Translations under genes and position numbers: made by a program
Part shown: in pieces, positions 10,375 to 12,493 of the stretch
Layout of the letters: every line of letters starts with the position of its first letter
Position numbering within the stretch: position 1 is the first letter of the stretch
Source: Escherichia phage vB_Eco_J-01
Sequence record: PQ438393.1
Strand: one strand, 5' to 3'
DNA length: 64,000 nucleotides
Notes under the pieces: model-generated
What the model saw: only the letters and a program-made list of their open reading frames with translations
What the model was told of the DNA's origin: nothing
The model's database searches: none

Positions 10375-10938
10375 ATGGCTAAACTTTATTTCCGATATAG
10401 TCCAATGAACAGTGGTAAAAGCACACATCTTTTACAAACAGCTTGGAACTATAAAGAAAGAAATATGAAAGTTCTTCTTTTAACTTCGGCTTTAGATACC
10501 AGATCTGGTTGTGCTATTGCTTCTAGGATAGGTATTAAAGAGGAAGCAAAACCAGTTAAAACAAAAGAAGATATGCTGGAAATTTATACACAGCTTAAAG
10601 AAAATCCAGTAGATGCAGTATTTGTGGATGAATCACAATTCCTAACTAAAGATATGGTTGACATTCTTGGAGATGTGGTAGATAATTACGATATTCCTGT
10701 ATTCTGCTATGGACTTAAAACAGATTTTGCTACAGAATTGTTTGAAGGTTCTGAACGGTTATTAGCCATAGCAGATTCAATTACGGAATTGAAAAGCATT
10801 TGTAAATGTGGAAGAAAGGCTATTTTTAATGCTAGACTTATCGACTCTAAAGAACAGATTGTTATTGGGGGAGAAGACATTTACGAAACAATGTGTAGAA
10901 AATGTTATAACAGGAGAAATAATGCGTCTAGTATGTGA
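10375..10938 (+). CDS. tk: thymidine kinase
   Basis: P-loop YSPMNSGKST, VFVDESQF, C-terminal CKCG...CRKCY zinc motif. Confidence 0.9.
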   Translation: MAKLYFRYSPMNSGKSTHLLQTAWNYKERNMKVLLLTSALDTRSGCAIASRIGIKEEAKPVKTKEDMLEIYTQLKENPVDAVFVDESQFLTKDMVDILGDVVDNYDIPVFCYGLKTDFATELFEGSERLLAIADSITELKSICKCGRKAIFNARLIDSKEQIVIGGEDIYETMCRKCYNRRNNASSM

Positions 10939-11512
10939 TTGGGATTTAGTAATAGCTCCTGCGGATATAGAATGGTTAAATTGGTTAAATGCGGTAAGTA
11001 GATCTAATATCAAATTTGATAAGGCACATAAGACTGTGCATTATGATATTACGAAATATTTTCCTGATTTTAAAAACCAATTTGGTGTAGATCCTTACTC
11101 TTTTTGGGATAACCAACATCTATATGATACTATGGGAGTAGTACCTAATAGTACAGATGTTGTTCATCGTATAATTGCAAATGGAGCTAATATATCTATA
11201 GCAAGCCACACTAAGGGTGGACACCTTAGTTCTAAATATAGACACGTAACACGGTCTTTAGATAAAGTGGACTTTAGTAGAACATCTGGTAATGGCTTTT
11301 TCGCAACAAAAGAAAAATACTTATTACCTTGCGACGTAACTATTGACGATAGGGCTGAAAATCTTGTCCTATTTCCAGATGAAACGTTGAAAATATATTT
11401 CAACACTATTTACGAAGATCCATACTTGGAAGAGTTAAAGAAACTTCCTAATGTAATTATCACTGGTTTAGATAATCAGTGGGAAGAAATTGAAAGTATT
11501 TTACTACCTTAA
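10922..11512 (+). CDS. HAD-superfamily phosphatase (putative deoxynucleotide 5'-monophosphatase)
   Basis: ORF track 10808..11512; ATG 10922 overlaps tk end; DWDLV (DxDxV) and later DD motif. Confidence 0.45.
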   Translation: MRLVCDWDLVIAPADIEWLNWLNAVSRSNIKFDKAHKTVHYDITKYFPDFKNQFGVDPYSFWDNQHLYDTMGVVPNSTDVVHRIIANGANISIASHTKGGHLSSKYRHVTRSLDKVDFSRTSGNGFFATKEKYLLPCDVTIDDRAENLVLFPDETLKIYFNTIYEDPYLEELKKLPNVIITGLDNQWEEIESILLP

Positions 11513-11521
11513 GGAGAAATA

Positions 11522-12493
11522 ATGACAAATTCTATTTCAGCAAAAATTATTGCACACTCTCAAACATCTGAAGGTAAGGATATTGTTACCTTTGAACTGG
11601 AATATCCTCGAATCATTCACTCTGAATTGATGACGCATCGTTTGTTTTCTCGTAATGCCGCATCAAGTCGAGCTATCCCTGTTAAAACTCTAATTGAAAT
11701 GGTACGGCAATCTCCAGCACGTCCTTATCGTTTTGGTGCTAACCAACCAGGTATGCAAGACAAAGGCACAGATCACGATGCCCTGATTGATGCAGGTTAC
11801 ACTGCAAAAGAATGGTGGGACTTGGCTGCGCTAAGTGCTGCACGTTTCGCAGAAGAGTTCGCCCTTGCTGGTTATCATAAGCAGGTTGCAAACCGCCTAC
11901 TGGAACCATTCCAGCGTATGAAGACTGTAGTAACCACTACAGAGCTAGAAAACTTCTTGTGGTTGCGCGTGGATGCTGATGCAGATCCTACTATTGAGGC
12001 TCTTGCTAAAGAAATTAAAAAACTGTATGAATCTTCTGAACCATATCTTCTTTTCCCAGGGGAATGGCATACACCTTACGTTAATCGTGATCGAGATCCA
12101 GAAACTGGTATGATCCGTTATTTCTTGGGTGAAACCTTCTCCAACGAGAAAATGTTGACAGAAGAGGAAGCAAAAGCTATTTCAGCTTCTTGTTGCGCTC
12201 AGGTAAGTTATCGTAAATTGAATGATACTAAAGATAAAGCATTGGATATCTATTCTCGTTTGCTGTCTGGACAAAAGGTACATGCATCTCCGTTTGAACA
12301 CCAGGCAACGCCAATGAAAGAAATGGATCTGTCAGGATTAAAACAACAGAAAGATGGTATTAATATGCCTCCGTTCCCTTCTTCTTGGGAGGAAGGTATT
12401 ACACATATGGATCGTAAACATCGTTTGTGGAGTGGAAACTTCTGTGGTTGGATTCAACATCGTCAACTTTTGACTAATCATACAAAATGGTGA
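11522..12493 (+). CDS. thyX: flavin-dependent thymidylate synthase ThyX
   Basis: ThyX signature HR-x7-S (THRLFSRNAASSR); AAGGAG RBS. Confidence 0.8.
   Translation: MTNSISAKIIAHSQTSEGKDIVTFELEYPRIIHSELMTHRLFSRNAASSRAIPVKTLIEMVRQSPARPYRFGANQPGMQDKGTDHDALIDAGYTAKEWWDLAALSAARFAEEFALAGYHKQVANRLLEPFQRMKTVVTTTELENFLWLRVDADADPTIEALAKEIKKLYESSEPYLLFPGEWHTPYVNRDRDPETGMIRYFLGETFSNEKMLTEEEAKAISASCCAQVSYRKLNDTKDKALDIYSRLLSGQKVHASPFEHQATPMKEMDLSGLKQQKDGINMPPFPSSWEEGITHMDRKHRLWSGNFCGWIQHRQLLTNHTKW

Follow-up and report, generated by a model that had tools for sequence, protein, structure and literature searches.

The locus described here raises the question of how a phage with no detectable dihydrofolate reductase (DHFR) could make deoxythymidine monophosphate (dTMP), and what kind of thymidylate synthase it would use for this step. 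The locus occupies positions 10375-12493 of a 64,000-nucleotide stretch of Escherichia phage vB_Eco_J-01 (record PQ438393.1), the whole of which is referred to as the window. Open reading frame (ORF) calling places three co-directional, tightly packed genes there:

10375..10938, + strand: tk, a type II (TK1/Tdk-like) thymidine kinase of 187 residues, assigned by Pfam, NCBIfam and PHROG.
10922..11512, + strand: an NT5C-type HAD 5'(3')-deoxyribonucleotidase-like phosphatase of 196 residues, assigned by HAD motifs and AlphaFold2 (AF2) fold.
11522..12493, + strand: a long-form ThyX-family protein of 323 residues, a putative flavin-dependent thymidylate synthase, assigned by Pfam Thy1 and profile alignment.

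The original prediction had described tk, a HAD phosphatase and thyX as contiguous, and this is what is found. Its limits coincide exactly with the tk start and the thyX stop, and its label of HAD phosphatase can be sharpened to NT5C-like deoxyribonucleotidase; as a whole, its observation is confirmed and its interpretation is supported. The third protein belongs to a rearranged branch of the ThyX family, and it is probably an active flavin-dependent thymidylate synthase that makes dTMP from host-derived deoxyuridine monophosphate (dUMP) without producing dihydrofolate.

The thyX-like gene product matches the Pfam family Thy1 (PF02511) with an E value of 4.2e-9 (36.9 bits against a gathering score of 24.8), and the match is limited to positions 59-186 of the 191 positions of the profile. 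A phmmer search with Thermotoga maritima ThyX as query picks solely this gene. When a profile of close homologues was compared with the PDB, T. maritima ThyX was the sole match, at a non-significant E value of about 1. The predicted fold matches ThyX-family structures only, and among predicted viral structures the named matches are nearly all phage thymidylate synthases. A ThyX fold of the 323-residue protein is supported by these comparisons of its predicted structure. A profile search of 1.84 billion representatives yielded 5420 clusters at 50% identity, and most of the 150 best-scoring matches are 290-345 residues long and have the same full-length architecture as the phage protein. The query and 124 of these 150 matches were combined into a family alignment (n=125, representatives no more than 50% identical), to which the conservation values below refer. 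The HR-x7-S signature, on which the original prediction had based its assignment, is present as T38-H39-R40-LFSRNAA-S48, that is, H39-R40...S48. The signature alone could be due to chance, but it coincides with the position of the ThyX motif in the profile alignment:

11633..11671, + strand: equivalent of the ThyX motif and active-site loop, T38-H39-R40-L-F-S43-R-N45-A-A-S48-S-R50, which hmmsearch and hhalign both place opposite residues 78-90 of T. maritima ThyX.

The order of segments along the chain differs from that of known ThyX proteins. The family profile was compared by hhalign with an alignment of canonical (Thermotogae) ThyX sequences, with a reversed template as control. Residues 21-174 of the phage protein align with ThyX 61-199 (E 2.8e-6), and residues 219-261 align with ThyX 20-60 (E 3.1e-6, probability 88%) independently of the core match, so that both pieces jointly span ThyX 20-199. 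Because these are two independent significant alignments and the reversed template gives only E 0.48, the segment order is considered to be rearranged. The relocated segment is as follows:

12176..12304, + strand: relocated N-terminal helical segment of ThyX, residues 219-261, ISASCCAQVSYR...KVHASPFEHQ, aligned by hhalign to ThyX 20-60 (S30 and His53 loop).

This segment, which carries Ser30 and the GHxSPFEH His53 loop, lies ahead of the RHR motif in every solved ThyX and C-terminal to the core in the phage protein, where it is followed by a conserved tail. A narrower alignment of 36 close homologues gave a weak hhalign match to ThyX (probability 3-29%), and the claim on segment order rests on the 125-sequence profile. 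The C-terminal half was also considered as a second, degenerate ThyX repeat, in which W310-I-Q-H-R314 would resemble canonical W76-F-R-H-R80; no tool supported this outside residues 219-261, and the idea is a guess.

Most of the active-site residues of T. maritima ThyX have counterparts in this family. In the canonical motif, RHRxxSxNExSxR, H79 corresponds to H39 of the phage protein (100%), R80 to R40 (82%), S83 to S43, N85 to N45, S88 to S48 (99%) and R90 to R50 (100%). RHR-x7-S therefore appears as THR-x7-S, with H39, S48 and R50 at 99-100%, R40 at 82% and Thr in 97% at position 38; judged from the aligned sequences, the absence of the first Arg is a family trait and not an error. In the core, R147 corresponds to R125, N169 to N144 and R174 to R149 (100%), and R50, R125, R149 and N144 are conserved at 99-100%. 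R90, R147, R174 and N169 of T. maritima ThyX are, as we take from established structural knowledge, the residues that bind dUMP. In the relocated segment, S30 corresponds to S229 (100%), H53 to H254 (100%), E58 to E259 and H59 to H260; S229 and the stretch H254-A-S-P-F-E-H260, which are 95-100% conserved, now stand in the C-terminal part of the chain. In T. maritima ThyX, Ser30 and the His53 loop contact flavin and folate, with H53 stacking on one or the other; the roles of H53, S30, S88 and N85 are taken from PMC11940539. Taken together, H39, N45, S48, R50, R125, N144, R149, S229, H254 and E259, which line the sites for dUMP, flavin and folate, are retained in 95-100% of the 125 representatives. 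New invariant positions (M78, H183, P185 and R314) appear in the extension.

Insertions in homologues bear on whether such a rearranged protein is functional. Among the 150 best homologues are sixteen with lengths of 520-680 residues, and Pfam intein or homing-endonuclease domains (HNH or LAGLIDADG) were found in four of the five long homologues scanned. Judged from the BLAST junctions, there are five insertion sites, H33|S34, F42|S43, S48|S49, about H151 and H254|, all of which fall on conserved motifs, the relocated His loop included; the insertion directly after H254 occurs in five homologues. Inteins usually target catalytic sites of important enzymes. Ten positions are 100% invariant across the 125 representatives. 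Because inteins sit on the motifs and these positions are invariant, the long-form ThyX family is probably functional. That the protein is instead a catalytically dead remnant, or serves only in structure or regulation, would agree with the loss of canonical R78, Y91, N163 and R165 and with the presence of ThyA in the host. It is scarcely credible in view of the strong purifying selection seen as ten invariant residues at no more than 50% identity, the 5420 clusters, the targeting of ThyX motifs by inteins and the retention of the gene in all 55 phi92-like records found. The intein-type long homologues comprise P0155, P0161, P0171, P0174, P0185, P0200, P0207 and P0212, and further P0225, P0234, P0235, P0251, P0255, P0274 and P0279. 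Homologues of about 630 residues with two matched stretches were at one point taken for tandem ThyX duplications; Pfam and BLAST show them to be intein-containing versions.

Several points weigh against an active thymidylate synthase. The profile search proposed in the original prediction places the protein above the gathering score of Pfam Thy1 but below the cut-off of the NCBIfam thyX equivalog TIGR02170 (35.5 bits against 87.9), so that its assignment to ThyX stands at the level of the former and fails at that of the latter. There is no sequence-level match to any solved PDB structure, and the AF2 model is of moderate quality (pLDDT 70.6, pTM 0.71, below 50 in the active-site loop). Searchable literature contains no tested member of the long-form branch. 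In the 125 representatives, R78 is replaced by Thr (T38, 97%) and Y91 by Ala (A51, 100%), and N163 and R165 are also Thr in the long-form family. In T. maritima ThyX, R78 stabilizes the anionic reduced flavin (FADH-), and mutation of Y91, the general acid, slows flavin oxidation 1000-fold (PMC11940539). Besides, ThyA and FolA are already present in the Escherichia coli host, so that the phage gene may be dispensable, and a nucleotidase beside a kinase looks futile. As far as sequence conservation can tell, the family retains the nucleotide pocket as well as the His loop and, if active, must handle flavin stabilization and acid catalysis otherwise. The chances are about even that the protein is a true dTMP synthase and yet a natural permutant of ThyX that uses other residues for these two tasks.

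The original prediction had further stated that no DHFR gene is seen in the window and had proposed to check the rest of the genome for frd. All six-frame ORFs of at least 40 residues in the window and in the complete EmilieFrey phage genome, which is 98.8% identical across the locus, were searched by phmmer with five DHFR queries (E. coli FolA, T4 Frd, Lactobacillus casei DHFR, human DHFR and R67 DfrB) and two ThyA queries (E. coli ThyA and T4 Td). No DHFR or ThyA was found in either (best E value 0.5 or worse), which bears out the statement for the window and, within the sensitivity of phmmer, answers the question on frd in the negative for EmilieFrey. As a control of sensitivity, DHFR and ThyA queries cross-detect one another at E values of 1e-5 to 1e-73. 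Further queries with Dut, Dcd, T4 dCMP deaminase and Tmk also gave no homologue in the window or the EmilieFrey genome (best E values of all queries 0.3-10; very divergent versions would escape phmmer), and the curated EmilieFrey annotation lists none of DHFR, ThyA, Dut, Dcd, dCMP deaminase and Tmk. The phage appears to rely on host enzymes to supply dUMP, clear dUTP and phosphorylate dTMP. The absence of DHFR is consistent with ThyX, whose reaction regenerates tetrahydrofolate and not dihydrofolate. The pairing of ThyA with DHFR in phages and its anticorrelation with ThyX are already described in the literature.

The catalytic activities, the substrates and the purpose of the nucleotidase are what we infer from here on. 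The ThyX-family protein would convert dUMP to dTMP with flavin adenine dinucleotide, NADPH and methylene-tetrahydrofolate and would regenerate tetrahydrofolate, a reaction that fits a phage without DHFR and ThyA. The thymidine kinase would act in salvage, converting thymidine to dTMP and deoxyuridine to dUMP. For the NT5C-like HAD enzyme, the most likely role is to remove phosphate from pyrimidine deoxynucleoside monophosphates, by which it would trim that pool. Nucleotidase and kinase would together form a substrate cycle that buffers dUMP and dTMP, as pairs of thymidine kinase (TK) and deoxyribonucleotidase (dNT) do in animal cells, where cdN/mdN are paired with TK1/TK2. Because no phage homologues were found for the remaining steps, host Dcd and Dut would supply dUMP, and host Tmk and Ndk would take dTMP to dTTP. 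It is very unlikely that the 323-residue protein is instead a ThyX-fold methylase that acts outside thymidylate supply on another substrate such as UMP (as PolB does), dCMP or nucleic acid: the equivalents of R90, R147 and R174 are invariant, the phage has no second thymidylate synthase, and in several lineages the gene consistently stands between genes that handle dNMPs and those of ribonucleotide reductase.

The first gene of the locus is a thymidine kinase at equivalog level, as judged from its sequence. It matches Pfam PF00265 over the full profile (E 1.2e-54, 185.3 bits), the NCBIfam equivalog NF003300 (238.9 bits against a cut-off of 195) and PHROG 592 (E 8.9e-73), and its translation has a P-loop, SPMNSGKST, and a C-terminal CxxC...CxxC zinc ribbon.

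The second protein appears to be an NT5C-like deoxyribonucleotidase by family and fold, with a predicted substrate. HAD motifs I-IV are invariant in 26 homologues (D6-x-D8, S95/T97, K130/K132 and D142-D143), and several homologues have PF06941 (NT5C) on record. The AF2 model has a pLDDT of 95.4, and its 16 best Foldseek matches in the PDB (TM-score 0.66-0.72, E 1e-8 to 1e-6) are all deoxyribonucleotidases or proteins designed on that scaffold; they include Staphylococcus epidermidis 3bwv and human mdN and cdN. A different view would be that this phosphatase acts outside the thymidylate pool, on a sugar phosphate, on 3'-phosphorylated nucleotides or DNA ends, or on NMN-related compounds, and is merely located here. 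The fold does not reveal the substrate specificity of a HAD enzyme, the Pfam NT5C score of 22.5 bits narrowly misses the gathering score of 24.8, the identity to solved deoxyribonucleotidases is 12-17%, and PHROG 420, which the protein matches, is listed as 'unknown function'. Nevertheless, this view is unlikely, because every one of the best structural matches is a 5'(3')-deoxyribonucleotidase or a design based on one, with generic HAD hydrolases ranking below, and because the gene adjoins or lies near thyX in four of the four contexts examined, two of them without tk.

Gene order in relatives agrees with such a link. In a metagenomic phage with 61% identity, the order is TK, NT5C, three ORFs, thyX, two ORFs, nrdA, one ORF and nrdB, and in two more distant contigs NT5C adjoins thyX without TK. 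The NT5C-like gene lies beside or near thyX in the distant relatives L008 (4307-6148), L009 (5001-6600) and L007 (3783-6972), which suggests that the nucleotidase is functionally tied to ThyX rather than to TK. In phage PVP-SE1, the order is thyX, an HNH gene, two ORFs, nrdA, nrdB, one ORF, grx and nrdD, with no TK or NT5C match nearby. It follows from the gene orders of relatives that thyX-nrdAB and nucleotidase-thyX are stable units and that tk is optional; the thyX-nrdAB-grx linkage is kept in distant relatives. In the window, thyX is followed by two small genes of no known function and then by nrdA, nrdB, rmlBACD and glutaredoxin:

13274-15535, + strand: nrdA of class I ribonucleotide reductase (Pfam Ribonuc_red_lgC, E 7e-99).
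15899-16984, + strand: nrdB of class I ribonucleotide reductase (Pfam Ribonuc_red_sm, E 1.9e-33).
18050-21311, + strand: rmlB, rmlA, rmlC and rmlD of the dTDP-L-rhamnose pathway (Pfam E 1e-81, 1.4e-76, 2.9e-72 and 1.6e-73).
21308-21574, + strand: glutaredoxin (Pfam E 9.4e-12).

An HNH endonuclease gene (PHROG 1985, E 2.4e-65) lies at 9754-10329 on the + strand, directly upstream of tk, and in PVP-SE1 an HNH_3 gene (L005 6998-7396) is the immediate downstream neighbour of thyX; genes of the homing-endonuclease type seem to gather at the thyX locus. In one metagenomic relative (L008 8151-10667), nrdA is called as two ORFs of 424 and 310 residues about 300 nucleotides apart, which could be due to an intron, to a homing-endonuclease insertion or to an assembly or frameshift artefact.

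The rml pathway is complete and lies 5.5 kb downstream of thyX, just past nrdAB, inside the nucleotide-metabolism block. Its product may go to DNA, to the virion or to a host glycan, a matter on which the literature only speculates, noting that the phages stay sensitive to restriction. With an active ThyX protein, dTTP would feed both an AT-rich genome (about 37% G+C) and RmlA, and the rml pathway would be a second consumer of dTTP. The same neighbourhood allows another scheme, in which the long-form ThyX makes a different C5-modified pyrimidine nucleotide, for example 5-hydroxymethyl-dUMP by trapping of the exocyclic methylene intermediate with water, the nucleotidase clears dTMP, and dTDP-rhamnose and glycosyltransferases decorate the DNA. 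Nucleotidases accompany base replacement in the 5-hydroxymethyluracil phages SPO1/SP8 and in PBS2. The systematic replacement of R78 and Y91 in a rearranged chain and the presence of the whole rml pathway 5.5 kb away in a DNA-metabolism block would be in line with this scheme, as would the speculation by Olsen et al. on rhamnosylation of hydroxymethylated nucleotides. However, the uracil- and phosphate-binding arginines are retained, the thymidine kinase of the same block would feed dTMP, and PVP-SE1 has the same type of ThyX and no rml genes within 6 kb on either side of thyX. Moreover, type I, II and III restriction systems are exceptionally effective against phi92-like phages and Vequintavirinae, and XbaI cuts the DNA of rV5, both of which argue for ordinary thymine in the DNA; more than 50 genomes have also been sequenced by standard methods. 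Because of the published restriction sensitivity, hypermodified thymine is regarded as highly improbable. In the EmilieFrey record, four putative glycosyltransferase or 'disaccharide synthase' genes (44552-47728) adjoin primase/helicase and DNA polymerase genes; these genes, which are outside the window, may bear on how dTDP-rhamnose is used.

Over the 2.1-kb region, identity to 55 deposited phage genomes, such as Eryne, EmilieFrey, muut and phi92, is 98-99%, and the source phage is a myovirus of the genus Justusliebigvirus (phi92-like), subfamily Stephanstirmvirinae, and not T4-like. Every phi92-like genome found (55 records) has the thyX-like gene. Most of these relatives are annotated with thymidine kinase, hypothetical protein and (putative) thymidylate synthase, and the HAD gene is annotated once as 5'(3')-deoxyribonucleotidase; the EmilieFrey annotation gives identical boundaries for the genes. 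Thymidylate synthase is also in the lists of nucleotide-metabolism genes in the rV5 and BME3 papers, the latter adding thymidine kinase. All three ORFs have strong ribosome-binding sites, and the antisense ORFs are short. The HAD gene starts with ATG at 10922 behind GGAGA and overlaps the tk stop by 17 nucleotides, and the mechanically called start at 10808 was rejected. The thyX-like gene starts 9 nucleotides past the HAD stop, with the same GGAGAAATAATG context in front as the HAD gene. A promoter and terminator scan of 9500-13500 found 11 elements against 13 expected from shuffling, and no transcription unit is claimed; an Rfam scan of 9000-14000 gave no RNA family match. Although the scan as a whole is not above chance, two matches are sigma-70-like (10313-10340, TTGACG-16-TATTAT; 12511-12539, TTGACT-17-TAGTAT), and each has a short GC-rich hairpin on its 3' side, CTCCCacaaacGGGAG at 10342-10357 before tk and AGGAGAGCtatGCTCTCCT at 12551-12569 after thyX. 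On a larger scale, the GC skew flips from positive to negative near 34 kb of the window; the flip at about 34000 coincides with the switch of coding strand in EmilieFrey, where a rightward early/metabolic block meets a leftward block of small genes.

The tk/phosphatase/thyX cluster is ordinary, and dozens of phi92-like genomes already carry its annotation; as the pattern of ThyX versus ThyA/DHFR in phages is also known, the cluster by itself changes nothing. What could matter is that thousands of phage 'thymidylate synthase' proteins form a rearranged branch without R78 and Y91, both of which are thought to be central to the T. maritima mechanism. A description of such a long-form ThyX, as defined here by sequence comparison, was not found in searchable literature. 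If active, these proteins would be a natural experiment on the indispensable features of flavin-dependent thymidylate synthesis, with a bearing on ThyX as an antibacterial target. Should they turn out not to make dTMP, an annotation that is very common in phages is wrong. The modified-base scheme, if true, would be the first flavin-dependent route to hypermodified thymine. The pairing of nucleotidase and thyX in a phage without a detected dUTPase also points to an unexplored control of dUMP and dTMP pools during infection.

Among known systems, T4 reaches the same goal, phage-encoded dTMP synthesis beside nucleotide-metabolism genes, with Td (ThyA) and Frd (DHFR). However, the enzyme families are unrelated, no Td or Frd homologue was found here, and the phage belongs to Stephanstirmvirinae and not to Tevenvirinae. 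Animal cdN and mdN and bacterial 3bwv share the HAD fold with cap and the residues of motifs I-IV with the phage nucleotidase, which co-occurs with a thymidine kinase as cdN/mdN do with TK1/TK2. In contrast, the phage enzyme is only 12-17% identical to them and in relatives goes with thyX and not with tk. PolB (PDB 4p5a), the ThyX-fold C5-methylase of UMP/dUMP in polyoxin biosynthesis, is encoded in an antibiotic gene cluster of Streptomyces, whereas the gene described here belongs to a lytic phage and has genes for dNMP handling on one side and for ribonucleotide reductase on the other. Canonical ThyX proteins (T. maritima TM0449, Mycobacterium tuberculosis Rv2754c, PBCV-1 A674R and Helicobacter pylori ThyX) have about 190-250 residues in solved chains. 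The phage protein, with 323 residues, differs from them in that segment 20-60 comes after 61-199, R78 is replaced by Thr, Y91 by Ala and N163/R165 by Thr, and a conserved C-terminal tail is added, with invariant H183, P185 and R314.

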